From NCBI GenBank assembly GCA_020724105.1, contig DYHP01000004.1, positions 1 through 32,258 on the forward strand: DNA of 32,258 nt, given 5' to 3'. Within the stretch, counting starts at the first letter, position 1. Every line of letters starts with the position of its first letter. The translations under genes were made by a program, and so were the position numbers. Source of the DNA: Candidatus Methylomirabilis sp. GTDB taxonomy: Bacteria > Patescibacteriota > Patescibacteriia > DYHP01. Positions 2,698-32,258 of this stretch are shown here, in pieces. Under the pieces are notes generated by a model. That model made no database searches. It worked only from the letters and a program-made list of their open reading frames with translations, and was not told where the DNA came from.

Positions 2698-3843
2698 TTA
2701 AATCTCTTCTTCGTGTTCCGGTTGTGATTTGACCCACTCATAAAGCTCTGATATCACTTTTTCGGTGTAATTGGCGAGGTGTAAGTCGTCGGTTAAAATT
2801 TTGGCGTCCGAAGCGTTAAAGCCGTATTCGTCTTGGAATCTCTGGCGTTTGGCAGCGGGCAATTCGGGAATTTTGTTTTTGAGCATCTCTCGAAATTCAA
2901 TCAAATTAAGCGGCGGGGTGTCGGGTTCGGGGAAGTAGCGGTAATCGTGCGATTCTTCCTTGATCCGCTGCTCCTCGGTGATGCCTTTTGTTTCATTCCA
3001 ACCGCGCGTTGATTGATACTTTGGCGGTTTGCCTTTTTCAAAAAGTTTTGTTTGGCGGATGATTTCATACTCCAGGGCGCGTTCGACGGCTTTGAAGGAA
3101 TTAAGATTTTTGATTTCGGTCTTCGGGTTAATAGGTCCTATGGGTCCAATAGGACTTATGGGTCCTAAAGGAGATAAAGAGATGTTGGCGTCAACTCGTA
3201 GATGGCCTTTTTCCATATCGGCGGAGGTAATGCCGAGATAGCGCATTATGAGCCGCAATTCCTGAAGAAAAATTTTCGCTTCCTGCGGGGAGCGGATGTC
3301 GGGCTCAGTAACGATTTCTAAAAGCGGGGTTCCTGAACGATTGAAATCAATGTATGTAGAAGCCATGTGCAAAAGCTTGGCCGCGTCTTCTTCAAGGTGG
3401 ACGCGCGCGAGGCGGATTTTAGTAGAAGCAGATTGACGCTGATTGAGTGCGCTGATTAACGCTGAAGAACTCCCTCCCTTACCCTCCCCCTTTTCAAGGG
3501 GGAGGGATGGGGTGGGGGATATTTCAAGATAACCTTGCCGCCCAATGGGTTTATCAAACTGTGAAATTTGGTAACCTTTGGGCAAGTCGGGGTAAAAATA
3601 ATTTTTGCGGTCGAATTTTGAAAAATCCAAAATCCCGCAATTTAAAGATAGTGCGGCGAGCACCGCATATTCTATCGCTCGCTTGTTTGGAACCGGCAAC
3701 ACGCCCGGATGACCCATGCAAACGGGGCAGATGGTGGTGTTGGGGGATTTGTCTTCGCCGGAATTGTCACAGGCGCAAAACATCTTAGATTTTGTTTTGA
3801 GTTGGACATGGATTTCTAATCCTATTATTGGAATATAATTCAT
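2698..3843 (-). CDS. gatB: Asp/Glu-tRNA amidotransferase subunit B, N-terminal catalytic part (ends early at TAA 2700-2698)
   Basis: MNYIPIIGLEIHVQLKTKSKMFCAC..., RVHLEEDAAKL and EIKNLNSFKAVERALEYEIIRQ are GatB hallmarks. It carries two in-frame repeat insertions (3470-3520 and 3129-3168). Confidence 0.85.
   Translation of the reverse strand: MNYIPIIGLEIHVQLKTKSKMFCACDNSGEDKSPNTTICPVCMGHPGVLPVPNKRAIEYAVLAALSLNCGILDFSKFDRKNYFYPDLPKGYQISQFDKPIGRQGYLEISPTPSLPLEKGEGKGGSSSALISALNQRQSASTKIRLARVHLEEDAAKLLHMASTYIDFNRSGTPLLEIVTEPDIRSPQEAKIFLQELRLIMRYLGITSADMEKGHLRVDANISLSPLGPISPIGPIGPINPKTEIKNLNSFKAVERALEYEIIRQTKLFEKGKPPKYQSTRGWNETKGITEEQRIKEESHDYRYFPEPDTPPLNLIEFREMLKNKIPELPAAKRQRFQDEYGFNASDAKILTDDLHLANYTEKVISELYEWVKSQPEHEEEI
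3129..3168. repeat. 9-mer family, in-frame in gatB
   Basis: TAATAGGTCCTATGGGTCCAATAGGACTTATGGGTCCTAA, translated as LGPISPIGPIGPIN just before the conserved EIKNLNSF block. Confidence 0.8.
3470..3520 (-). repeat. Family C hairpin (in-frame in the gatB N-terminal ORF)
   Basis: CTCCCTCCCTTACCCTCCCCCTTTTCAAGGGGGAGGGATGGGGTGGGGGAT. It translates as ISPTPSLPLEKGEGKGGS. Confidence 0.7.
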
Positions 3844-4693: not shown

Positions 4694-4702
4694 ATGTTTA
4701 AT

Positions 4703-4783
4703 AACACTGAACTCACAGAACATTACACGGAATAACAACGAAGTTTTCCGTGTGGTTCTGTGTTAAGTTCAGTAGATTCGGTG
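4703..4783. repeat. Family F hairpin (words TTCCGTGT, GGTTCTGTGTTA, GTTCAG, TTCGGTG), copy 1
   Basis: Left arm AACACTGAACTCACAGAACATTACACGGAA and right arm TTCCGTGTGGTTCTGTGTTAAGTTCAGT. It lies directly 5' of the membrane-protein ATG at 4693. Confidence 0.7.
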
Positions 4784-5572: not shown

Positions 5573-5622
5573 CATAAAACCTATAGGACCTTATAAGACC
5601 TTTAGGACTTATAGGACTAATA
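5573..5622. repeat. 9-mer family, dut-tmk spacer
   Basis: CATAAAACC TATAGGACC TTATAAGAC CTTTAGGAC TTATAGGAC TAATA. It overlaps the dut stop. Confidence 0.8.
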
Positions 5623-7284: not shown

Positions 7285-7292
7285 AAATTTCT

Positions 7293-7337
7293 GATAGGAC
7301 TGATAAGTCCAATAAGACCAACGGGTCTCATAGGATT
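7293..7337. repeat. 9-mer family, nusG-rplK spacer
   Basis: GATAGGACTGATAAGTCCAATAAGACCAACGGGTCTCATAGGATT. Confidence 0.75.
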
Positions 7338-8171: not shown

Positions 8172-9389
8172 TCAATAGTCTTTTAGAAACTTCTTGATTT
8201 CCCCCGCCGCCTCTTTGTAATTCTTCACCCACTTAATATTCCGATTTCTTCTAAACCAATTCATTTGGCCTCTTACGTATTTGTGGGTGCGGAACTTGAT
8301 TTTCTGCCCCGCTTCTTCAAGAGTGGTTTTGCCATTCATATAGTCGAGAATTTCTTTGTAACCAATGCCCGATAGGGCGGGGATTTTGGAAATTAGTTTT
8401 ATAGAAATTGGAAATTGGTTATGGAAAGCAGAAACTGAAAATTGGTTTTTTCCATTTTCTATTTTCTGTTTTCTATCACTAATTTCTAATTTCTGAACAG
8501 CTATTTTCTTTTTAAAATAATCAATAAGACATTTCGTTTCCCCCACCAATCCTTGTTTAATCATCTCCTCAACCCTCGCATCTATTCTTTTGTACAACTC
8601 ATGCCTGGGGACTTTAATTCCTATCTGCAAAGTATTAAAGAGCGGTTTTTCGGGTACCCGAAATACATTCTTCTTTTGTAAAGAGGAGTTAATGGGGGTT
8701 ATGTTTTGGCGTTCGGCGGCGTTGTTGTGGCGTTTTTTGGCTTCTACTAAAACTTCCAACGCGCGAATAATGCGCCTCTTATTTTCTAAATCAACGATTT
8801 TAGGCGCCGCCGGGTCTAATTTTTTTAATTGTTTAATTAAAATTTTTAAATCTTTTTTTTCCAATTTTTTTCTAAGCTTCCAGTTTGGAGGAACTTTGGG
8901 AATTGCCAAATTTTCACTTAAGGCGTGGAGATAAAACGCCGTGCCGCCGCAAATGATAGGAATTTTTCCGCGGCAAATTATATCGCGCGCAATTTTGGTT
9001 GCCATTTCTTTGAATTCAGCGACGGAGAAAATCTGGTCGGGTTCAAGAAAACCGATTAAATAATGTTGAATGCCTTTGTATAAACAAGGAGTAGAAGCCA
9101 GTTTTGCGCCATCACTACGCCAATTTACGCCAGCAACCCTCTCATTTTCAGGTACCTGAAAAATATTATGTAAAGGGGAGTTAGCGGGGGTTGTGTTTTG
9201 GCGTTTGGCGGCGTTGTTATGGCGTTTCGTGGCTTCTATGCGCGGGGCGGCTGTGCCGATTTTCATCCCTTTGTAAATTTGCCGCGAGTCGGCGCCGATA
9301 ATTTCGCCGTTAAATTTTTTGGCGATCTTAATAGCGAGTTCAGTCTTGCCGCAACCCGTCGGGCCAGTGATAATAATAATTCTTTTCAT
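8172..9389 (-). CDS. miaA: tRNA dimethylallyltransferase, enlarged by three repeat-derived in-frame inserts
   Basis: MKRIIIITGPTGCGKTELAIKIAKKFNGEIIGADSRQIYKGMKIGTAAP is MiaA-like. At 405 aa it is longer than the roughly 300 aa I recall for typical MiaA; the excess maps to repeats at 9092-9238, 8646-8746 and 8383-8493. Confidence 0.88.
   Translation of the reverse strand: MKRIIIITGPTGCGKTELAIKIAKKFNGEIIGADSRQIYKGMKIGTAAPRIEATKRHNNAAKRQNTTPANSPLHNIFQVPENERVAGVNWRSDGAKLASTPCLYKGIQHYLIGFLEPDQIFSVAEFKEMATKIARDIICRGKIPIICGGTAFYLHALSENLAIPKVPPNWKLRKKLEKKDLKILIKQLKKLDPAAPKIVDLENKRRIIRALEVLVEAKKRHNNAAERQNITPINSSLQKKNVFRVPEKPLFNTLQIGIKVPRHELYKRIDARVEEMIKQGLVGETKCLIDYFKKKIAVQKLEISDRKQKIENGKNQFSVSAFHNQFPISIKLISKIPALSGIGYKEILDYMNGKTTLEEAGQKIKFRTHKYVRGQMNWFRRNRNIKWVKNYKEAAGEIKKFLKDY
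8383..8493 (-). mobile_element. Family B AT-rich palindromic element (in-frame in miaA)
   Basis: 87-bp core at 8402-8488 bounded by TAGAAATT...AATTTCTA. It translates as KLEISDRKQKIENGKNQFSVSAFHNQFPISIKLISKI. Confidence 0.7.
8646..8746 (-). mobile_element. Family A element, diverged right half plus centre (in-frame in miaA)
   Basis: TTTTCGGGTACCCGAAA...GGCGTTGTTGTGGCGTTTTTTGGCTTCTA. It translates as EAKKRHNNAAERQNITPINSSLQKKNVFRVPEKP. Confidence 0.6.
9092..9238 (-). mobile_element. Family A element, copy 3 (in-frame in miaA)
   Basis: Same length (147 bp) and termini, with about 8 substitutions relative to the argS copies. It translates as EATKRHNNAAKRQNTTPANSPLHNIFQVPENERVAGVNWRSDGAKLAST. 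Confidence 0.75.
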
Positions 9390-9394
9390 AAGAT

Positions 9395-9447
9395 GAATAG
9401 GACAAATAAGTCCAAGCAGTCCGATAGGACGAATGGAAGGAATGGGA
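9395..9447. repeat. 9-mer family, miaB-miaA spacer
   Basis: GAATAGGACAAATAAGTCCAAGCAGTCCGATAGGACGAATGGAAGGAATGGGA fills the spacer. Confidence 0.75.
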
Positions 9448-10662
9448 TTATCTATTGATTAAATCGTTTAATATCCGCCAGCGACGTTTTTTCACCTCGC
9501 GCGGAATATCATCTGGGAAATTTTTATAAGCGAACGTTCTGCTTCGCGGCGAGTACATAGAGATATAAGCGATGTTGAAACCGACTTTTTTGCAAAGTTT
9601 TATGGTGTTCTGAAATTGTTTTTCCGTTTCGCCGGGAAAGCCGACGATAATGTCCGTTCCCAACTCAATGCTGGGTTTTGCTTTTCTCACTTTTTTTATG
9701 ATTTTTAAATAATCTTTGGCAGCATATTTCCGATTCATTGTGCGCAAAATTTTATCATCGCCGGATTGAACCGGCAAATGCAGATAATTTACCATTTTTG
9801 GCAATGCCAAAGCTTTTATTGTTTCATCGTTCATATAACGAGGATGAGGGGCGGTGAAGTGAAGTCGTTTTAATCCTTCTAATTGATTCAATTCCCATAA
9901 CAGAGCGGCGAAATGATTTTTAAAAGGATCCTTTTTAGAAAAATTTTCCGGGTCGGGAGCAACCCATTTATTAACAATCTGGCCGAGGAGAATTATTTCT
10001 ATCGCGCCTTCGCGAATCAATTTTTTCGCTTCGCGCAAAATTTCTTTAAGCGGCCTGTTATATTCCCTGCCGCGCGCGTAAGGCACAACGCAATAAGAAC
10101 AAAACTCATTGCATCCAGTTTGAATCGTGAGGTAACGGGAGGTGGCAAAGTCGGATCTGGGCAAGATAGACAAATAGTCGCCTGCGCTGCAAATTTTAGA
10201 AATTGGTTGTTTAGAAATTGGAAATTGGTTATGGAAAATAGAAAGTGGAAATTGGCTTTTGCTATTTTCTATTTTCTGTTTTCTATTACTAATTTCTATT
10301 TTCCATAAAGCTAATTTCTGCGCCAAAGATGGCAATTCATCTATTCTGAAAAAAAGGTCCGCGCCGAAAAGTTTTTTGCGGATTTTCCCATCTTTATCGC
10401 GGCCGACCAGACAGCCGGTAACGGCGATAATTGGTTTAGAGGCCAGCGTTTTTGTAGGGTTGTTATGGCGTCTTGTGGCTTCTACTAACCCGAATACCCT
10501 GTCTTCGGCCGTTTGGCGAACCGAGCAGGAATTTATAACGATAAAATCGGCCGAATTTTTGTCTTTGGCTTTTTTCATCCCCATTTTTTCCAAAACTGCG
10601 GCAATTCTCTCGGAATCATTTTTATTCATCTGACAGCCGTATGTAACTATGCAGTATTTCAT
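9448..10662 (-). CDS. miaB: MiaB-family radical-SAM tRNA methylthiotransferase
   Basis: MKYCIVTYGCQMN start and the CNEFCSYC radical-SAM cluster motif. I prefer the start at 10662 (or 10668), because the track start at 10740 lies within an intergenic hairpin repeat. It carries the in-frame repeat at 10193-10303. Confidence 0.82.
   Translation of the reverse strand: MKYCIVTYGCQMNKNDSERIAAVLEKMGMKKAKDKNSADFIVINSCSVRQTAEDRVFGLVEATRRHNNPTKTLASKPIIAVTGCLVGRDKDGKIRKKLFGADLFFRIDELPSLAQKLALWKIEISNRKQKIENSKSQFPLSIFHNQFPISKQPISKICSAGDYLSILPRSDFATSRYLTIQTGCNEFCSYCVVPYARGREYNRPLKEILREAKKLIREGAIEIILLGQIVNKWVAPDPENFSKKDPFKNHFAALLWELNQLEGLKRLHFTAPHPRYMNDETIKALALPKMVNYLHLPVQSGDDKILRTMNRKYAAKDYLKIIKKVRKAKPSIELGTDIIVGFPGETEKQFQNTIKLCKKVGFNIAYISMYSPRSRTFAYKNFPDDIPREVKKRRWRILNDLINR
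10193..10303 (-). mobile_element. Family B element (in-frame in miaB)
   Basis: 87-bp core at 10212-10298 with the same termini, roughly 85-90% identical by eye to the miaA copy, in the same orientation and frame (KIEISNRKQKIENSKSQFPLSIFHNQFPISKQPISKI). Confidence 0.7.
10457..10484 (-). mobile_element. Family A right-end fragment (in-frame in miaB)
   Basis: GGGTTGTTATGGCGTCTTGTGGCTTCTA matches the element's right terminus. It translates as EATRRHNNP. Confidence 0.45.
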
Positions 10663-10667
10663 ATTCA

Positions 10668-10760
10668 TTCGGTGTTGTTCCGTGTAATATTCCGTGTGTT
10701 CAATGATAAAATGTTTTAACACAGAACCAATCTGAACCATACACCGAACTACACGGAATT
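10668..10760. repeat. Family F hairpin, copy 2
   Basis: TTCGGTGTTGTTCCGTGTAATATTCCGTGTGTTCAA...AACACAGAACCAATCTGAACCATACACCGAACTACACGGAA. It lies directly 5' of the miaB ATG at 10662. Confidence 0.7.
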
Positions 10761-14576: not shown

Positions 14577-16571
14577 CTATACTCGTTGAAGCGGTTTTAT
14601 CCCCAACAACTTCATCCCTTGTTCAAACGTTTCGGCTATCTTTTTTATAAATAAAATGCGTTGCGTTCTGACGGATTCCGGGGCGTTAAGGACCGGCGTT
14701 GTTTCATAAAAATCATTAAATTTTTTTGCCAAATCATAAAGGTAAAGCGCCAGGTCTGAAGGGTCGAGATTTTTAGCGGACAACTCTATTGTTTCCTCAT
14801 ATTTGGCAAGATGCATTATCAAATTATTTATAGAAGCCATCTTTACGCCATCACCACGCCAATTTACGCCAGCAACCCTCTCATTTTCAGGTACCTGAAA
14901 AATATTATGTAAGGGGGAGTTGGCGGGGGTTGTGTTTTGGCGTTTGGCGGCGTTGTTATGGCGTTTTTTGGCTTCTACGAGAATGCTCTGTGTTCTGGCA
15001 TAGGCATATTCCAAATAAACGCCTGTTCTGCCCAACAAACTGACCGATTCCTCCGGCCTAAAAAGCAATTCCGATTTTGGGTCAACCTGCAAAATATAAA
15101 ATTTCAGCGCCGCCAAAGCCAAATTTTTAATAGAAGCCATCTTTACGCCATCACCACGCCAATTTACGCCAGCAACCCTCTCATTTTCAGGTACCTGAAA
15201 AATATTATGTAAGGGGGAGTTGGCGGGGGTTGTGTTTTGGCGTTTGGCGGCGTTGTTATGGCGTTTTTTGGCTTCTATAATTAGCATTTTCTCTAATTGT
15301 TCAATCAAATCATCGGCATCCACCCTTGCGCCTTCCCGCGATTTTAATTTTCCTTCGGGCAAAAGAACGAGGCCGTAATTTAAATGGAATAATTTTTCCA
15401 CAAAAGGCGCGCCAACAACTTCAAAAATTTTAAACAATTGCTTGAAATAATAATCCTGTTCGGAAGCGACAATATAAATCATTTTGTCAAATTTAAAATC
15501 CTTCGCTCTCTGAAACGCAAGTTCAATGTCATTTGTGGCGTAAACCGATGTGCCGTCGGCGCGCAACACGACCTTGTTTGCCAAACCGAACTTCGCCAAA
15601 TTCGCGATAATATTGCCTTTTTCGTCTTTTTTCAAAAATTTATTTTTAAAATATTCCGCCGCTCTTTTCTTCGCTTTTTTATAAATTTGACTTTCAAAAT
15701 AAATTTTGTCGAACTTTATGCCCAAATTTTTAAATGTTTCGTCAAACCCCCGAAGCGCCCAGTTGTTCATTTTTTTCCACAACGCGACAGTCGGCTTGTC
15801 GCCCGCCTCCCACTTTTTTAACAATTCGTACGCCTCATTTAGAAGCGACGGATTTTCTTTGGCTTTTTCACCGAATAAAACATAGTACCGCCCGACGAAC
15901 GCGTCGCCTTTTTCGGTTTTAGATTTAAGATTTAAAATTTCAGATTTGAATTTTTCTTCGGATTTCGGACCTGTTCCGTAGCGTCGCGAAGCGTCTGCTT
16001 CGGGGTTTCGAATCTCGGATTTCCGCTGCGAAGCAGTGGCTGGCGTTTCGCCATAACCAAATTTCTGGTAAGCAAGCATTGATTTGGCAATGTGGATCCC
16101 GCGGTCATTGACCAACGAGGTGCGGATAACTTTCGCGCCCCGCAATTCCAATATATTGCTTAACGCCTCGCCCAAAAGACCGTTCCGGACATGACCCAGA
16201 TGAAGCGGTTTGTTGCTGTTGGGAGAAACGTATTCTATTACCACCTTTTTAGATTTAAGATTTAAGTTGTCAGATTTAAGTTGTTTTTTTGTTAAAATTT
16301 CTCCGGCGATCTTTTCTTTATCCAAAATAAAATTTAAATAAGGACCCGCGATTCTGATTTCTTTTATATAAGGGTTCTTGGCGATGAAATCTTCCAATTT
16401 ATTTTTGAGTTCCTCCACCTTAGTTGTAAGTTGTAAACCGTGGCACGGCAGCGCCAAATCGCCCATTTCGGGTTTGGGCGGGTACTCAAAAACATCAGCC
16501 GTTATTGGCGATGGCAAGTGCTTATTAATCTCCTCTGCCAGATTTTGTTTCAGGGTCTTGAGAGAGAACAT
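14577..16571 (-). CDS. argS: Arginine--tRNA ligase carrying four repeat-derived in-frame inserts
   Basis: HLGHVRNG (HIGH-like) motif and a DALR-type C-terminus (YLEYAYARTQSIL ... LYLYDLAKKFNDFYE). 664 aa; roughly 150 aa map to repeats at 14831-14977, 15131-15277, 15917-16041 and 16248-16285. Confidence 0.9.
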   Translation of the reverse strand: MFSLKTLKQNLAEEINKHLPSPITADVFEYPPKPEMGDLALPCHGLQLTTKVEELKNKLEDFIAKNPYIKEIRIAGPYLNFILDKEKIAGEILTKKQLKSDNLNLKSKKVVIEYVSPNSNKPLHLGHVRNGLLGEALSNILELRGAKVIRTSLVNDRGIHIAKSMLAYQKFGYGETPATASQRKSEIRNPEADASRRYGTGPKSEEKFKSEILNLKSKTEKGDAFVGRYYVLFGEKAKENPSLLNEAYELLKKWEAGDKPTVALWKKMNNWALRGFDETFKNLGIKFDKIYFESQIYKKAKKRAAEYFKNKFLKKDEKGNIIANLAKFGLANKVVLRADGTSVYATNDIELAFQRAKDFKFDKMIYIVASEQDYYFKQLFKIFEVVGAPFVEKLFHLNYGLVLLPEGKLKSREGARVDADDLIEQLEKMLIIEAKKRHNNAAKRQNTTPANSPLHNIFQVPENERVAGVNWRGDGVKMASIKNLALAALKFYILQVDPKSELLFRPEESVSLLGRTGVYLEYAYARTQSILVEAKKRHNNAAKRQNTTPANSPLHNIFQVPENERVAGVNWRGDGVKMASINNLIMHLAKYEETIELSAKNLDPSDLALYLYDLAKKFNDFYETTPVLNAPESVRTQRILFIKKIAETFEQGMKLLGIKPLQRV
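14831..14977 (-). mobile_element. Family A 147-bp palindromic element, copy 1 (in-frame in argS)
   Basis: Termini TAGAAGCC...GGCTTCTA, central palindrome TTTTCAGGTACCTGAAAA, and arms that are imperfect inverted copies rich in ACGCC/GGCGT words. It translates as EAKKRHNNAAKRQNTTPANSPLHNIFQVPENERVAGVNWRGDGVKMASI. Confidence 0.75.
15131..15277 (-). mobile_element. Family A element, copy 2 (in-frame in argS)
   Basis: 147/147 nt identical to 14831-14977, exactly 300 bp away, in the same orientation and reading frame. Confidence 0.75.
15917..15950. repeat. AGATTTA heptamer array, in-frame in argS
   Basis: TTTTAGATTTAAGATTTAAAATTTCAGATTTGAA, translated as FKSEILNLKSKT. Confidence 0.7.
16248..16285. 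repeat. AGATTTAAG array, in-frame in argS
   Basis: TTTAGATTTAAGATTTAAGTTGTCAGATTTAAGTTG, translated as QLKSDNLNLKSKK. Confidence 0.7.
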
Positions 16572-16907: not shown

Positions 16908-18434
16908 ATGGAAATCTTAATCGTCTTAATACTGGCCGCGGCCTGCGTCGGCGGTTTTTTGGGTTATTTAATCAGAAGCGAGGTGGCTAAAAGAAGGGCG
17001 GCGAGCGCCGAGGCGCGCGCGGGAAAAATCATAAGCGACGCCAAAACTCGAGCCCAGGAATTTTTAATAAGAACAAAAGAAAAAGGGCTGCAAATCATTG
17101 AGGAAGCCAAGAAAGAAGAAACCGAGAGAAGAAAAACATTGCTTGAACACGAAAAAAGATTGGAAAAAAGAGAATCGCTCTTTGACCAAAAACTTTTGGA
17201 ATCCCAGGAAAAGCAGCAAAAACTGCAGGACAAACTGCGCGAAATCGAGGAGATAAAATTAAAAATAAACCAATTAAAAGACCGAATATTGGGGGAATTG
17301 CAAAGGATTTCATCGCTTAGCGTGGAGGAGGCCAAGCAAGAAATTTTGAAACGCGTGGAAGACGACGTGAAAGACGAAGCGCTTTCAAGAATCAGGAAAC
17401 TTGAACAGACCGCGGCGGAAGAACTTGAAAACAAAACAAAAGAACTGATTGGCGATATCTTGCAAAGAGTGGCGATTTCGCACGCTGTGGAAATCACCAC
17501 CACCAGCGTTAATTTGCCCAACGACGAAATGAAAGGAAGAATTATCGGCAAAGAAGGCAGAAACATCAGGACCATAGAACAATTAACCGGCACCGAACTT
17601 ATTATTGACGAAACGCCGAACACAATAACCGTTTCAAGTTTCTCCCCCATCCGCCGCCAAATCGCCAAACGGGCGCTCGACAAACTCATTGCCGACGGCA
17701 GAATCCAGCCGGCGCGCATTGAAGAAGCGATTGACATCTCCAAAAAAGAATTGGCGATAGAAATTAAAAAAGCCGGCGAAGACACTTTGTATTCTTTGGG
17801 GCTTGAAATCGCGGGATACGACCCAAAGCTCATCCAAATCTTAGGCAGATTGAAATTCAGGACAAGTTACGGACAAAATGTTTTGCAGCACTCAATCGAA
17901 GTGGCGTACTTGTCCGCGCTTTTGGCCCAAGAATTGGGGCTCAACGCTTCATTGGCGAAAAAAGGCGGTTTGTTCCATGACGTCGGCAAGGCGGTTGACC
18001 AGGAAGTGCAGGGAACTCATCCTGAAATCGGCTATAATATTTTGAAAAAATTCGGCCTTCCCGAAGACGTCGCTTATTGCGCCTTGGGACATCATGAAGA
18101 CAAGCCAAAAACCATTGAAGCGATATTGGTGAAAACCGCCGATGCCATATCGGGCGCGAGGCCGGGCGCGCGCAAAGAAACGCTTGAACAATACATCCAA
18201 AGGTTGGAAGATTTGGAAAAAGTCGCCACCGGTTTTTCGGGCGTGGAAAAAGCCTACGCCATCCAAGCCGGCCGAGAAATCAGAGTTTTCGTTAAACCCG
18301 ACCAAATCGACGATTTGTCGGCGTTTAATTTGGCTCGCGACATTGCCAAACAAATAGAAACGGAATTAAGATACCCGGGCGAAATCAAGGTGACGGTCAT
18401 CAGGGAAACCCGCGCCATTGAATACGCGAGATAA
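16908..18434 (+). CDS. rny: Ribonuclease Y
   Basis: N-terminal TM helix, coiled-coil, KH domain (GRIIGKEGRNIRTIE) and HD domain (HSIEVA...LFHDVGKA...GHH). Confidence 0.93.
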   Translation: MEILIVLILAAACVGGFLGYLIRSEVAKRRAASAEARAGKIISDAKTRAQEFLIRTKEKGLQIIEEAKKEETERRKTLLEHEKRLEKRESLFDQKLLESQEKQQKLQDKLREIEEIKLKINQLKDRILGELQRISSLSVEEAKQEILKRVEDDVKDEALSRIRKLEQTAAEELENKTKELIGDILQRVAISHAVEITTTSVNLPNDEMKGRIIGKEGRNIRTIEQLTGTELIIDETPNTITVSSFSPIRRQIAKRALDKLIADGRIQPARIEEAIDISKKELAIEIKKAGEDTLYSLGLEIAGYDPKLIQILGRLKFRTSYGQNVLQHSIEVAYLSALLAQELGLNASLAKKGGLFHDVGKAVDQEVQGTHPEIGYNILKKFGLPEDVAYCALGHHEDKPKTIEAILVKTADAISGARPGARKETLEQYIQRLEDLEKVATGFSGVEKAYAIQAGREIRVFVKPDQIDDLSAFNLARDIAKQIETELRYPGEIKVTVIRETRAIEYAR

Positions 18435-18484
18435 TAAGACCTTTAGGACCTATAGGACCCATTAGTCCGATTGGACTCATAAGA
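18434..18484. repeat. 9-mer family, rny-ymdB spacer
   Basis: ATAAGACCTTTAGGACCTATAGGACCCATTAGTCCGATTGGACTCATAAG. Confidence 0.8.
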
Positions 18485-18492
18485 TTTAATTT

Positions 18493-19326
18493 ATGACCAT
18501 ATTATTCTTCGGCGACATAATGGGCAAAATCGGCCGCAAGGCCGTAGAAAAAATAACGCCCAAGTGGAAAAAGAAATACAAACCCGATGTTATCATCGCC
18601 AACGGCGAAAACCTGGCGCACGGCATTGGCATTACCGAAAAAACGGCGCGCCAAGTTTTTGACGCGGGCGTTGATTTTTTAACCGGCGGCAACCACACTT
18701 TTGATAAAACAAGCGACCTCTATATATGGAACGACGAAGTTTTTGAAAAAAAATTGCTTCGTCCGGCGAACTTAACCCCCCTAATCCCACCCCTTATTTT
18801 AAGGGGGGGCAAGGAGGGATTACCGGGCGAAGGGGTGAAGATAATTGATGTTAAAGGAAATAAATTAATGCTTATCAATCTAATGGGTAGAGTGTTTTTC
18901 AAAGAAGAATACCTGGACCCGTTTAAAATGATGAATGAAATCTTGAAAGACAAGCCCAAAGACATTAAATGCGTTATTTTGGATTTTCACGCCGAAGCGA
19001 CATCGGAAAAAAACGCTTTGGGCTGGTATTTGGACGGGGGAATTTCCGCGATAATAGGCACGCACACGCACATCCCGACAGCCGACGCGAAAATCCTGCC
19101 GCAAGGCGCCGCTTACATCACCGACGTCGGCATGGTCGGCGCCAGAGATTCGGTGCTCGGCGAGAATAAAGATGCCATTATTAATGCTTTTTTGACTGAC
19201 AGCGGATTTAAACATGACATTCCGGAAAAAGGCGAAGCGATAATCGGCGCGGTTTTATTGAAAATCGACGAAAAAACCGGCAAGGCGAAAAAAATTGAGA
19301 GATTGGAAGAGACAATTAAAATTTAA
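18493..19326 (+). CDS. ymdB: YmdB-family metallophosphoesterase (TIGR00282-like)
   Basis: MTILFFGDIMGKIGRKAV...ANGENLAHGIGIT...GGNHTFDK...DFHAEATSEK...GTHTH, with conserved rny-ymdB synteny. Contains a hairpin-derived insert at 18774-18822. Confidence 0.85.
   Translation: MTILFFGDIMGKIGRKAVEKITPKWKKKYKPDVIIANGENLAHGIGITEKTARQVFDAGVDFLTGGNHTFDKTSDLYIWNDEVFEKKLLRPANLTPLIPPLILRGGKEGLPGEGVKIIDVKGNKLMLINLMGRVFFKEEYLDPFKMMNEILKDKPKDIKCVILDFHAEATSEKNALGWYLDGGISAIIGTHTHIPTADAKILPQGAAYITDVGMVGARDSVLGENKDAIINAFLTDSGFKHDIPEKGEAIIGAVLLKIDEKTGKAKKIERLEETIKI
18774..18822 (+). repeat. Family C hairpin (in-frame in ymdB)
   Basis: AACCCCCCTAATCCCACCCCTTATTTTAAGGGGGGGCAAGGAGGGATT. It translates as LTPLIPPLILRGGKEGL. 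Confidence 0.7.
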
Positions 19327-19327
19327 C

Positions 19328-19356
19328 TGGACTTATAAGTCCTATAGGTCCTATAA
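19328..19356. repeat. 9-mer family after the ymdB stop
   Basis: TGGACTTATAAGTCCTATAGGTCCTATAA, just before the terminator hairpin. Confidence 0.75.
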
Positions 19357-19361
19357 AATAA

Positions 19362-19390
19362 ATACCCCCGATAAAATCGGGGGTATTTTA
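19362..19390. terminator. Intrinsic terminator (bidirectional) after ymdB and the small minus-strand ORF
   Basis: ATACCCCCGAT-AAA-ATCGGGGGTAT is a perfect 11-bp stem, followed by TTTA. The left flank is A/T-rich. Confidence 0.75.
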
Positions 19391-22440: not shown

Positions 22441-22450
22441 GCAAACAAAA

Positions 22451-22527
22451 ATCCTATAAGTCCTATAGGACCTATAAGTCCTATGTGTCCTATAAGTCCT
22501 ATAAGTCCTATAGGACTTATAGGCCCG
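22451..22527. repeat. Tandem array of about 8 units of the 9-mer TCCTATAAG/TCCTATAGG
   Basis: TCCTATAAG TCCTATAGG ACCTATAAG TCCTATGTG TCCTATAAG TCCTATAAG TCCTATAGG ACTTATAGG. It contains the perfect 24-bp palindrome CTATAAGTCCTATAGGACTTATAG and overlaps the rpoC stop codon. Confidence 0.9.
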
Positions 22528-25500
22528 ATTTATAACCGGTTCCGGTCGGAATCAATCTGCCGATGATGACATTTTCCTTCAAACCTTCAAGTTTGTCAAG
22601 GCGGCCGGTTGTCGCGGCGTTAATCAAAACGCGGGCGGTTTCCTGGAACGAAGCAGCTGATAAAAAGCTCATTGACGAGAGCGAAACGCGACTGATGCCC
22701 ATAAACAAATCCTTGGATGTCGCCTTTTTACCGCCGCTTTTCGCCATTTTCTCGTTCTCTTCTTCATAATACCAGCGCTCGACAATCTCGCCGGGCAACA
22801 TTTCAGTATCTCCCGGATCCTCAATTAACACGCGGGAAAACATTTGTTTTATGATTACCTCGATATGCTTGTCGTTTAATCTCTGACCTTGTGAACAATA
22901 AATTTTTTGGATGTTTTGGAGAATATAGCGTTGCGTCGCTTCCTTGCTTTTGAAATGATAGAGTTCTTGCAAATCCAAACTGCCTTCGGTCAAGGGATCG
23001 CCGGCCGTAACATATTCGCCATCCTTGACATGCAAGACATAGCCGGCCGGAATGATAAATTCCTTGACGATTTTCCCCTGCCAAGTCACTTTGACGATTT
23101 TGTCGCTTAGGGAGACCGCGCCCGATTTTTTGGCAACGACAAACTTACCATCTTCGCGCTCGATTAAAACCTCACCTTCCTTGATTTTCCCGCCGTCTTT
23201 TGCTCTGACTTTGTCTTTTGCGCCGAAGCGGTACGAAAATTCTTCGCTTCCTTCTTTTGACACTTCAACGATTCTCTGGGTTAAAACCGTACCCTTGTGA
23301 GCCTTGTCAATGTCTTTCACCTTGACTTCGCCGTCCGTGTCCGCGGTTATGGCGCGGTTTTTCGGCGGACGCGCTTCAAAAAGTTCTTCAACGCGAGGCA
23401 AACCTTGGGTAATGTCGAGCCCGGCCACGCCGCCGGTATGAAACGTTCTCATGGTAAGCTGAGTGCCTGGCTCGCCGATTGATTGGGCGGCGATAATGCC
23501 GACTGGCGCGCCTTCTTTGACAATCTGGTTATAAGCCAAATCATGGCCGTAGCATTTGGCGCAAACGCCTTTTTGGGATTTACAGCTTAAAACGCTCCTG
23601 ACTTTAGATTCTTTAATCTTGTGAGCGGCGAGTTCGCGGGCGATTTTGTGAGTAATCAACTCCCCCTTTTTCAACAATATTTTATTATTAACATCTTTCA
23701 GGTCTTGGGCTAAGAATCTGCCGACGAGCCTCTCAAAAAAACTCATGCCCAAATCGTTACTTTCTTCGGCGGTAATGAATATGCCGTCAGACGTCCCGCA
23801 ATCGTCCATTCTGATAATTATATCCTGTGAAACATCAACCAAACGCCTGGTTAAATAACCGGATGAAGCAGTGCGGACTGCGGTATCCGCCAAGCCTTTT
23901 CTCGTGCCGTGAGTTGAAATGAAATATTCCAAAACATCCAACCCTTCCTTAAAACTACGCTTGACCGGCAACTCAATAACGTTGCCGGCGGGATTAACCA
24001 CCAAACCCTTCATGCCCATCATCTGGGTGAGCTGCCCCCAGCTGCCGCGCGCCCCGGAATCAATCATGCTGTAGACCGAACCGCCTTTGTCCAATTTTTC
24101 CTTGCAGAGCTGGGTTATTCTGTCTTTGGTGGCGTCCCAAATGCCGATGATTTTGCTGTACTTTTCCTTAAAAGTCAAAAGCCCTTCCTCGTAAAGCGAC
24201 TCAATCCCGGCCACTTGTTTGTTGGCTTCTGTTATTAATTCGTTCTTTTCGGGCAAATCGGGAACCTCTTCCAAACTCCAGGTGTAACCAGATTTGGTGA
24301 TGTAGTAAAAGCCCGTTTCCTTGATGTCGTCCAAAATCTTAGCCGTCGCTTCGGGACCGTAAAATTCAAGACACATCCTGATGATTTCGCCTAACTTTTT
24401 GACATTTAGCGCCTCATTTTTGAAAGGTATTTCGGCCGGCAATCTTTGCCAGAAAATAACGCGGCCGACCGTGGTGTCCGTAATTTTCCCCCTGAATCTC
24501 ACTTTTATCGGTTCGTGCAAGGTAATTTTGCCAAGTTCATAAACCATTAGCGCCTCTTTCTCGTCGGCAAATGATTTGGGCTTGTCGCGATTTTTGCCCC
24601 ATGCTCCCAAAGTCAAAAAGTAACAGCCCCAGGCAATGTCTTTGTTTGGCGTGGCAATAGGCTGGCCCGTGCCCGGCTTTAACAAATTGCGGACGGAAAG
24701 CATGCGTTCGGCGGCCTCTTTATTGGCTTCCTCGGTGAGAGGAACGTGAACAGCCATCTGATCGCCGTCAAAGTCCGCGTTATAAGCAACGCAGACCATC
24801 GGATGGATTTGAATCGCTTTGCCTTCCACAAGCACCGGCTGAAAGGCCTGGATGCCCAAACGATGGAGCGTCGGGGCGCGATTGAGCATCACGTAGGCGT
24901 TCTTGATAATGTCTTCCAAAATATCCCAAACCTCCGGTCTGTCGCTTTCAATGAAACGATTGGCGCTTTTAATGTTGTGGACGAAGTCGGCGAGGATTAA
25001 TTTACTGATAAGAAAAGGCCTGAAAAGCTCAAGCGCCATTCTTTTCGGCAGACCGCATTGGTGCATTTTGAGACTAGGATTGACGACAATGACGCTGCGA
25101 CCGGAGTAATCAACCCGTTTGCCCAAAAGATTTTGGCGGAAACGGCCCTGCTTGCCTTTCAAGATGTCGGCGAGCGACCTTAATTCGTGTTTCGCTCCCG
25201 CGCCTGCCGCTCCTTTGGTTTGGCGGGCGCTGTTGTCAATTAAAGCGTCAACCGCCTCCTGCATCATTCTTCTTTCGTTTCGGCAAATAACCTCTGGCGC
25301 GTTCAACTCCGTCAATCTTTTCAAACGATTGTTTCTGTTTATAATGCGGCGGTATAAATCGTTTAAATCAGAAGTGGCGTAACGTCCGCCGTCAAGCGCC
25401 ACCATGGGCCTTAAATCCGGCGGAATGACGGGCACATTCTTCAAAATCATCCATTCGGGCCTGATGTTTTGTTTTTTTAAACTCTTTAAAAGTTTCAGGC

Positions 25501-31319: not shown

Positions 31320-31364
31320 ATAAGTCCTATAAGTCTCCTATAAGTCCTATAGGTCTTATAGGTT
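31320..31364. repeat. 9-mer family, rnj-trpS spacer
   Basis: ATAAGTCCTATAAGTCTCCTATAAGTCCTATAGGTCTTATAGGTT. Confidence 0.8.
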
Positions 31365-31367
31365 AAA

Positions 31368-32258
31368 TTATACTTCAATCACCACCGGCAAGACCATCGG
31401 CCGCCGTTCGGTTTTTTTGAAAAGAAACTCGCCGATTTCGTTTCTAATCCTGTTTCTTGTATACATATTGTCCAGCGGCGACTTGGGGTCTTTGTCGCGA
31501 ATAATGCGCCTGACTCTCTCGCGCATATCTTCTATTAATTTCTTGTTTTCTTTGAGATAAACAAACCCGCGCGAAATAATGTCAGGACTGCCGGTGAGCG
31601 CGCCGGTTTTGCTTAGAACCGTGGCGATAATCACGACCATGCCGTCTCGGGCGAGGACTTTTCTGTCGCGCAACACAATGTCGCTTACGTCGCCCACGCC
31701 CAAGCCGTCGACAAACACGTAATCGGTCGGCAAAATTTCATTGGTTAAAACCGCCCTCCCTTTCTCAAACTCAATCACTTGACCGTTGGTTGAAATGATG
31801 ACTTTTTCCTTGGGGAAACCCGCGGCCTCGGCGACTTTGGCGTTTTCGCGGAGCATATATTGGCTTCCTTCAATGGGAATGTAATATTTCGGTTTAAGCA
31901 AAGAGAGTATTAATTTAATGTCGTCGTTTTTAGCGTGGCCGCCGGCGTGAACATCCATCATTTGATAATGAATTATTTCCGCGCCTTTTTTGACTAAAGT
32001 GTCTTTGAGCCGCGAAATGGTTCTTTCGTTACCCGGGACAACAGATGAAGAAAAAATGATGGTGTCACCGGGTTTAATTTGGACGGATTTATGTTCGCTA
32101 TTGGCAATTCTCATCAGCACCGCTTGTTCCTCGCCTTGGGCGCCGGTGCAAAGAATTATCACTTTGTCGTCAGGTAAATGATTGACTTGGGCAATGTCAA
32201 TAAGCGTATGGGGGTGATGTTTGATATAACCCATTTTGCGGGCGATTTCCACGTTTGT
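31368..32258 (-). CDS. rnj: Ribonuclease J, C-terminal two-thirds; 5' end beyond the window
   Basis: beta-CASP/metallo-beta-lactamase family sequence (...MMDVHAGGHAKNDDIKL...YIPIEGSQYML...). The frame stays open to the window edge at 32258. Confidence 0.85.
   Translation of the reverse strand, partial: TNVEIARKMGYIKHHPHTLIDIAQVNHLPDDKVIILCTGAQGEEQAVLMRIANSEHKSVQIKPGDTIIFSSSVVPGNERTISRLKDTLVKKGAEIIHYQMMDVHAGGHAKNDDIKLILSLLKPKYYIPIEGSQYMLRENAKVAEAAGFPKEKVIISTNGQVIEFEKGRAVLTNEILPTDYVFVDGLGVGDVSDIVLRDRKVLARDGMVVIIATVLSKTGALTGSPDIISRGFVYLKENKKLIEDMRERVRRIIRDKDPKSPLDNMYTRNRIRNEIGEFLFKKTERRPMVLPVVIEV

Follow-up and report, generated by a model that had tools for sequence, protein, structure and literature searches.

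A 147-bp palindromic repeat lies in frame in genes for tRNA-acting enzymes of a probable Patescibacteria genome

How does one palindromic DNA sequence come to lie, in a single orientation and reading frame, inside several genes whose products act on tRNA? The question is raised by contig DYHP01000004.1 (assembly GCA_020724105.1), of which positions 1 to 32,258, here called the window, were analysed. In this window the gene miaA (8172–9389, minus strand; Pfam IPPT, 4e-61) encodes 405 amino acids, against about 300–320 in its homologues, and carries copies of a 147-bp element that is also present in miaB, argS and gatB. The explanation we favour, and hold to be probable rather than certain, is that the family consists of non-autonomous, hairpin-forming repeats acting as selfish “protein-coding palindromes”, in the manner of the Rickettsia palindromic elements (RPEs). 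Judged by its sequence, the repeat would be a new family in a different lineage, of a kind already known from Rickettsia.

Six copies were found in the 32 kb of the window. Each reads with the coding strand of its host, and host genes and copies are all on the minus strand. The copy at miaA site 1 (9092–9238) is full length, encodes the peptide EATKRHNN...AKLAS and lies in the loop after the IGTAAP motif. An earlier note, made from the letters of the window, had described it as a full 147-bp copy with about eight substitutions; nhmmer and a repeat search agreed, giving 8 substitutions and 94.6% identity to the argS copies. The gene argS (14577–16571; 664 amino acids, an archaeal-type arginyl-tRNA synthetase by Pfam) has two 147-bp copies that are identical to each other. 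Site a (14831–14977) follows YARTQSIL, in a loop of the DALR anticodon-binding domain, and at site b (15131–15277) the first six codons, EAKKRH, stand at the native ArgRS motif E-x-K-K-R-H. At miaA site 2 (8646–8746) the half copy of the earlier note is real. It comprises the coding-5′ arm, the core and the central palindrome TTTCGGGTACCCGAAA, the coding-3′ arm being gone (nhmmer match 8647–8746, model positions 54–147, E = 2e-19).

The same repeat family was recovered from independent metagenome contigs. Our comparison set covers about 100 kb from six related genomes, three contigs coming from a pattern scan of JGI metagenomes and three further, syntenic ones from MiaA homologues and contig look-ups. 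In the miaB-type gene (9448–10740; UPF0004 and radical SAM domains by Pfam) only a right terminus had been noticed before. The copy there is a 48-nt mini-copy (10437–10484) with two termini, TAGAAGCCA...CTGGCCTCTA, and a deleted interior, encoding EATRRHNNPTKTLAS (nhmmer match 10455–10484, E = 0.012), and the relative L003 has a 165-nt full copy at this site. The nhmmer model, built from the three full copies, gave no matches in the window beyond these three, 8647–8746 and 10455–10484. The sixth copy (3423–3520), in gatB (2698–3843), had been overlooked. It combines an L003-type hairpin core, identical at 49 of 53 positions to the core of a relative's argS copy, with a 3′ arm that has diverged (CAGCG motifs, end CTGCTTCTA), and it lacks the 5′ arm. 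The miaA, miaB and argS copies share one frame, with peptides of the form EA(K/T)(K/R)RHNN..., as had been claimed for five occurrences, and the gatB copy has the same orientation and frame (…QSAS|T).

The element is an imperfect palindrome across its whole 147 bp. A perfect 9-bp terminal inverted repeat (TIR; TAGAAGCCA...TGGCTTCTA) lies inside imperfect arms of about 40 bp. Each arm has three ACGCC(A) motifs spaced 10–11 bp apart, i.e., about one helical turn, and the spacers between them are non-complementary and A-rich on the coding strand. The centre is a separate hairpin, which in the window copies ends in the perfect palindrome TTTTCAGGTACCTGAAAA. Folded as RNA, the 147-mer forms one long hairpin (−54.7 kcal/mol, z = −6.2), and folding as DNA gave z = −5.8; none of 200 shuffles folded as well. 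An identical arm type surrounds very different cores in the relatives, and an alternative core (CCCTCCCCCTT...AAGGGGGAGGG) occurs in the window without arms at 2543–2604 and 18753–18844, the latter inside ymdB. The family looks like arms placed around an independently repeated small hairpin, in a nested or modular build. The G/C-rich hairpin CCC(T)CCCCCTT...AAGGGGGAGGG is the core in L003 and in the window gatB copy, and it is also found free-standing.

Two compensatory double changes were read directly from the copies. The central CAGGTACCTG became CGGGTACCCG in the 8646 copy, and TIR position 9 changed from A..T to G..C in L051. Both preserve the symmetry, which suggests that the palindrome itself matters, for a copying mechanism or for a function. 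An Rfam scan of the window returned three tRNAs only, with no family match to the element.

The uniform frame has a simple explanation in the stop codons of the element. We translated seven variants (147, 147, 165, 114, 135, 81 and 48 nt), with three different cores, in six frames. The EAKKRH frame was the sole open frame of six in each full-length variant. Frame 0 opens with the terminal TAG on both strands, the remaining sense frame has 2–7 stops per variant, and the two remaining antisense frames have exactly one stop each, located in the core. The purging of every other insertion from selected genes therefore suffices for the uniform orientation and frame, in support of the earlier suggestion that stops remove the alternatives. 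Window and relatives together have seven independent intragenic sites (two in miaA, one in miaB, two in argS, two in gatB), all in one orientation and one frame. The lengths of all copies with two termini are divisible by three (147, 147, 147, 48, 165, 81, 114 and 135). At least one copy is intergenic, in the rny–ymdB spacer of L003 (6206–6540), where it starts right after the rny stop codon; it has 335 nt, not a multiple of three. Length changes in genes stay multiples of three, indicating that trimming was filtered for frame.

These lengths also bear on whether the segment is removed before the protein matures, as an intron or intein, or is an assembly artefact. Nothing but the strong RNA structure speaks for this. 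A segment of 147 nt is far under intron or intein size, the peptide has E-A at its start and A-S at its end and no intein junction residues, and Rfam gave no intron match. An open frame and lengths in multiples of three in all variants would matter only if the segment is translated, and the family is present in independent NCBI, JGI and ENA assemblies. The element has the marks of neither an intein nor a self-splicing intron, and we give this explanation next to no probability.

For selection on the peptide, a codon-position test replaced dN/dS, because there are few independent substitutions and constraint at the DNA level confounds that ratio. Eight 5′ arms and six 3′ arms were aligned. Third positions were variable in 9 of 28 columns and first plus second positions in 17 of 54 (p = 1). 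In the same alignment 22 of 34 spacer columns varied, against 4 of 48 in the terminal 9-mer and ACGCC motifs (Fisher p = 8e-8). The host genes, set against those of the relatives as a control, had the order of substitutions pos3 > pos1 > pos2, with ~50% third-position divergence. The peptide shows no sign of selection, and conservation is at the level of DNA motifs; the alternative offered in the earlier note, that the inserted peptide itself is selected, found no support.

The effect on the host proteins was followed in structures. In PDB alignments the miaA site-1 insert falls between residues 50 and 56 of 2qgn, and the alignment of MiaA with solved structures breaks at the inserts, query residues 50–104 standing opposite a 5-residue loop. 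Both ArgRS copies are in linkers of the anticodon-binding domain, between aligned blocks. An AlphaFold model of MiaA, made with 120 aligned MiaA sequences as input, had a predicted template-modelling score (pTM) of 0.80 and a core with a predicted local distance difference test (pLDDT) above 90. Values of pLDDT below 50 were confined to residues 56–92 and 229–244, which are the two element peptides. The model matched tRNA-bound E. coli MiaA (2zm5/3foz) with a target-normalised TM-score of 0.80–0.81. The inserts are thus predicted to be disordered loops upon an intact MiaA fold.

The loop after IGTA(K/A)P is a hotspot of indels: 17 of 119 MiaA homologues are longer than the median by over 10 residues, and have other repeat-like peptides there. 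Many CPR-like (candidate phyla radiation) MiaA homologues (P0007–P0053) have unrelated, repeat-like insertions of 15–60 residues in the same loop, e.g., VQNDNG repeats or ...SAIDCFVASAPRNDKK... In-frame insertion of repeats in the MiaA IGTAKP loop appears, from these sequences, to be widespread in these lineages.

A selected protein module, e.g., an extra tRNA-binding arm made by the basic peptide (EAKKRHNNAAKRQ...GVNWRSDG), would explain why all hosts are tRNA enzymes: all seven intragenic sites belong to miaA, miaB, argS and gatB, out of roughly 25 genes in the syntenic region. The N-terminal half of the peptide is rich in K, R and H, and resembles a native ArgRS helix. However, besides the absence of a third-position excess among copies and the low pLDDT, large deletions and core replacement vary the peptide, and close relatives with intact enzymes have empty sites. 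The genes miaA and miaB carry unrelated repeat insertions as well, and may simply be tolerant. A phmmer search of 1.84 billion cluster representatives with the peptide gave 0 matches, a weak negative, as carriers may hide behind insert-free representatives. We consider a selected module very improbable.

The history of the sites was read from the syntenic relatives, in which RNase Y is 77–85% identical across all pairs. At miaA site 1 the 147 nt of the window correspond to 81 nt in L003 (central 66 nt deleted), a variant in L051, a remnant in L050 and an empty site in L052. The miaB site has 48 nt in the window, 165 nt in L003 and only the 5′ arm in L051, and is empty in L050 and L052. At argS site a, L003 has 114 nt to the window's 147 nt, L051 and L050 have other repeats, and L052 possibly a diverged core. 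The 147-nt copy at argS site b has as counterparts a 5′ arm followed by native sequence in L003 and native sequence in L051, L050 and L052. Site 2 of miaA is occupied in the window and empty, with native CLAGYKFSEFGKKG, in L003, L051, L050 and L052. L002, which covers gatB and no miaA, miaB or argS sites, has an arm-bearing copy at the site of the window copy 3423–3520; at a further gatB site (gatB-1), empty in the window, it has a 135-nt copy with two extra 30-nt end repeats, gatB-1 being compared between the window and L002 only. These extra repeats (L002 226–285) are tandem copies of the terminal segment (TAGAAGCCATTTCCA(T/C)GCCAT...) ahead of the full gatB copy, each adding 10 codons (…GVEMASTKNN GVEMASTKSD GMEMAS). 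Both gain and loss of the element are visible in this comparison.

The sites miaA-1 and miaB (and argS-a in L003) are occupied in relatives that are ~50% diverged at host third positions. Several insertions are older than the separation of lineages whose synonymous sites are by now saturated. The arms are still 85–100% identical; at the orthologous miaA-1 site they differ at 9 of 82 positions, compared with 31% for the gene (binomial p = 2e-5). The argS copies are identical in the window yet very unlike each other in L003, so that identity between copies is no guide to the date of insertion. Orthologous copies share some site-specific variants, e.g., the AAGACG spacer in both miaB copies. The earlier note had taken the graded decay of the copies for successive invasions. 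This is not well supported: the miaA-1, miaB and argS-a sites are old, being occupied in diverged relatives, and the miaA-2 copy, present only in the window, is among the most decayed, contrary to an age series. The pattern fits better with insertions that are old, in-frame deletions within them, and either homogenisation among copies or renewed invasion of old sites.

Such conserved arms could point to a functional nucleic-acid element of which the peptide is a by-product. It could be a protein-binding DNA array (each arm having four A(A/C)GCC pentamers at intervals of one helical turn, in inverted order) or a stable hairpin in the mRNA, modulating how the host message is translated or decays. 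The near-invariant motifs and free spacers, the two double changes that keep the symmetry, the strong hairpin, and arms whose conservation at orthologous sites is about 3 times that of the host genes are consistent with this. However, the core or a whole arm can be lost while the host gene persists, close relatives have empty sites, and the Rfam scan matched no family. Ongoing mobility or gene conversion also conserves termini and subterminal repeats. We regard a function of this kind as unlikely.

The copy at argS site b raised the question of where the arm came from. EAKKRH stands at the same distance from DADDLI as the native E-(I/T)-K-K-R-H in insert-free relatives, and the codons of the element provide E433 and R437, two residues that do not vary among eleven ArgRS sequences, archaeal ones included. 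Native argS DNA matches the element terminus GAAGCCAAAAAACGCCAT at 16 of 18 positions in L051 and 14 of 18 in L050, and the 13 residues of the arm peptide (EAKKRHNNAAKRQ) run parallel to those of the native helix (EIKKRHPSIGKKE). In L003 the arm runs directly into native sequence. The argS-b site of L051 was considered as a mini-element and ruled out by a wider ArgRS alignment, as it is the native motif. The arm may have been born from this piece of argS, or the resemblance may have guided or permitted integration there; chance likeness is a third option.

In the first case, a segment of argS (the helix E-x-KKRH...KKE, with which the anticodon-binding domain begins) would have been made palindromic by inverted duplication and spread by ectopic gene conversion or illegitimate recombination. 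The homogenised copies within the genome, and the fact that neither a target-site duplication nor a transposase was found for the element, would agree with such an origin. The nucleotide match is, however, mostly forced by the amino-acid match, and past 18 nt the similarity is at background. A short K/R-rich motif could match by chance within a proteome, and an insertion that did so would be preferentially tolerated. The sharp, identical termini at unrelated sites (gatB, miaA, miaB and one intergenic) suggest events defined by the ends of the element. An argS origin by this route seems to us unlikely. Quite improbable, in our judgement, is a reading in which the arm is derived from, or interchangeable with, the conserved helix of the ArgRS anticodon domain, the palindrome copies this basic peptide (or a protein-binding DNA array) into MiaA, MiaB and GatB, and the arms are held by selection and not by mobility alone. 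If true, a mobile coding palindrome would be shuffling domains in a minimal-genome bacterium.

The system that the element resembles most in these respects is that of RPE-1 to RPE-10 (Ogata et al. 2000, 2002). In PMC2229807 and PMC10969869, RPEs are described as 105–146 bp (or up to 150 bp) long, with a long stem-loop and TIRs, an unknown target-site duplication and no transposase. They are intergenic as well as fused in frame (the open frame) to conserved genes whose products stay active, and several families occur in one genome. Our element likewise is a palindrome of 100–150 bp with TIRs, lies in frame in conserved genes and also between genes, encodes a tolerated peptide, has no transposase, and shares its genome with other families. 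It differs in its unrelated host lineage, which is probably CPR/Patescibacteria, in arms made of periodic ACGCC motifs around an exchangeable inner hairpin, in arms that at orthologous sites have changed much less than the host genes, and in one copy that is co-linear with a native host motif (ArgRS). By analogy of architecture and not of sequence, the element would work like an RPE, and we do not file it as a member. No paper linking such elements to CPR bacteria was found in the literature searched.

Other small repeats were less close. [quoted passage not shown] It is multi-copy, and its only open frame is the host frame. Unlike in these MITEs, copies are mostly intragenic, no insertion sequence (IS) with matching ends is known, and no TA duplication was shown, the frame arithmetic speaking against a 2-bp duplication; the flanking target-site duplication of a generic MITE was not seen. 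Repetitive extragenic palindromes (REPs) and bacterial interspersed mosaic elements (BIMEs) are mobilised by REP-associated tyrosine transposases (RAYTs), carry GTAG/CGTC tags, and add 20–80 residues with no target-site duplication (PMC3733652). Intragenic REPs are reported in several bacteria, including in tRNA synthetase genes and a gene for tRNA pseudouridine synthase B (PMC3733652). Our element, too, is palindromic, intragenic also in tRNA-enzyme genes, and adds residues without a target-site duplication, and about half of the copies have a G before TAG, giving a GTAG end. Unlike a REP, it is a 147-bp unit with structured arms of 40 bp, compared with single hairpins of 20–40 bp in dimers, and GTAG is inconstant, ATAG and TTAG being also present. 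No RAYT gene was seen in the window or the related loci.

Under the RPE-like reading, copies would land in, or be copied into, genes and spacers. In essential or useful genes an insertion would survive only if it used the single open frame and lay in a loop where added residues are tolerated. Such a copy would be transcribed and presumably translated, giving the protein surface a disordered excursion of about 49 residues. Deletions and core swaps would later shrink or change it, filtered to multiples of three. Gene conversion or re-invasion may homogenise the copies within a genome, the arms staying closer than the surrounding genes, as the divergence pattern suggests. Mobility would be provided in trans.

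Several points weigh against this reading. Neither the window nor the related loci L001–L003 and L050–L053 yielded a transposase or a parent IS, and no HUH/Y1 transposase was among the Pfam hits of the region. There is no visible target-site duplication: occupied and empty sites were compared and no direct repeat flanks any copy, the flanking loops being too diverged for a very short or 3n-bp duplication to be seen. A TA duplication, such as many bacterial MITEs make, was rejected, as the TA-to-TA lengths are all multiples of three and a 2-bp duplication would shift the frame; an APC...APC duplication around miaA site 1 proved to be native sequence. All hosts so far act on tRNA; these are four genes only, and the limitation may reflect tolerance, as miaA and miaB carry other repeats. 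Arms that differ at 9 of 82 positions, against the 31% of the gene, are unexpected for dead selfish copies unless these are homogenised. The coding arm coincides with a native ArgRS motif, and the census is confined to the about 100 kb from six related genomes.

Sources of mobility and distant copies were also searched for in larger collections. Pattern scans of genome, metagenome and viral collections for an autonomous IS with the same termini gave element copies or nothing, and the right-terminus pattern had 0 matches in GTDB genomes. Viral contigs, PLSDB plasmids and phage records (blastn for plasmids and phages) had no match to the element. For further carriers, the GTDB and viral scans are weak negatives. 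A word-indexed search of 5.8 billion proteins with the 48-aa peptide and a nine-variant alignment gave no match, and carries little weight, as the index also missed the MiaA of the window.

If the RPE-like reading is right, protein-coding palindromes, described as a peculiarity of Rickettsia, are now found in core translation-related genes of an unrelated small-genome lineage, where at least two or three more repeat families do so in these genes as well. The finding suggests that genome reduction may, in general, leave the surface loops of essential enzymes open to remodelling by selfish hairpin repeats. With respect to annotation, inserts of this sort may simply account for CPR proteins that look ~30% longer than their homologues. 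Syntenic relatives with occupied, shrunken and empty sites offer a natural series for the birth, in-frame trimming and assimilation of inserts, and the coincidence of the arm with the ArgRS motif is a concrete lead on the origin of the element or its choice of site.

The window is a housekeeping block with gatB, tmk, dut, rplA, rplK, nusG, miaA, miaB, hup, a DAG-kinase-like gene, bactofilin, argS, rny, ymdB, a lon-like gene, rpoC, rpoB and genes for a class I (Trp/Tyr-type) tRNA synthetase and RNase J. NusG and L11 are 72% and 66% identical to those of a Candidatus Falkowbacteria metagenome-assembled genome (MAG), and the synteny agrees. From these identities and the archaeal-type ArgRS we infer that the lineage, which is not Rickettsia, belongs to the CPR/Patescibacteria. 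A scan of genomes with the ArgRS as query found relatives at 26–42% identity only, mostly in DPANN archaea, and none closer than 42% among the species-representative genomes of GTDB. The best matches were Woesearchaeota and Nanoarchaeia (38–42%) and one Candidatus Falkowbacteria MAG (41%).

Other repeats were found in the same genes. A second palindromic element of 127 nt lies in frame in miaA (8383–8509) and miaB (10193–10319), the two copies being 86% identical. It is built of 7-nt units (GAAATTG in one arm, TTTTCTA in the other), has 2 of 6 frames open and encodes the peptide ...KIEISNRKQKIEN...FHNQFPIS... At both of its sites L003 has a different shared repeat with units ...GVAHESARKN..., present in miaB as four tandem units of ~90 nt. 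Arrays of 9-nt units (TATAGGACC / TATAAGTCC and complement) occupy most of the short intergenic spacers (1943–1985, 5574–5622, 7285–7334, 9388–9437, 18434–18492, 19334–19372, 22447–22541 and 31320–31377), and one lies in frame in gatB (3130–3180), with a GPIGPI-type peptide. In the relatives such arrays are in argS, miaA and miaB (e.g., KPIGPMGPIGPMGP in L051 argS). The argS of the window has, at 15917–15947 and 16247–16280, in-frame arrays built from a 7-nt unit (TTTAAGA). A 38-residue segment of argS (SQRKSEIRNPEADASRRYGTGPKSEEKFKSEILNLKSK) is missing in all four relatives, indicating that this gene has at least four lineage-specific inserts. An inverted pair of 41 nt (4702–4742 and 10668–10708), 83% complementary and with CACTGAAC..CACAGAAC..CACGGAA motifs, lies at the 5′ ends of two genes, and a similar string of motifs opens the L003-specific inserts of miaA and miaB.

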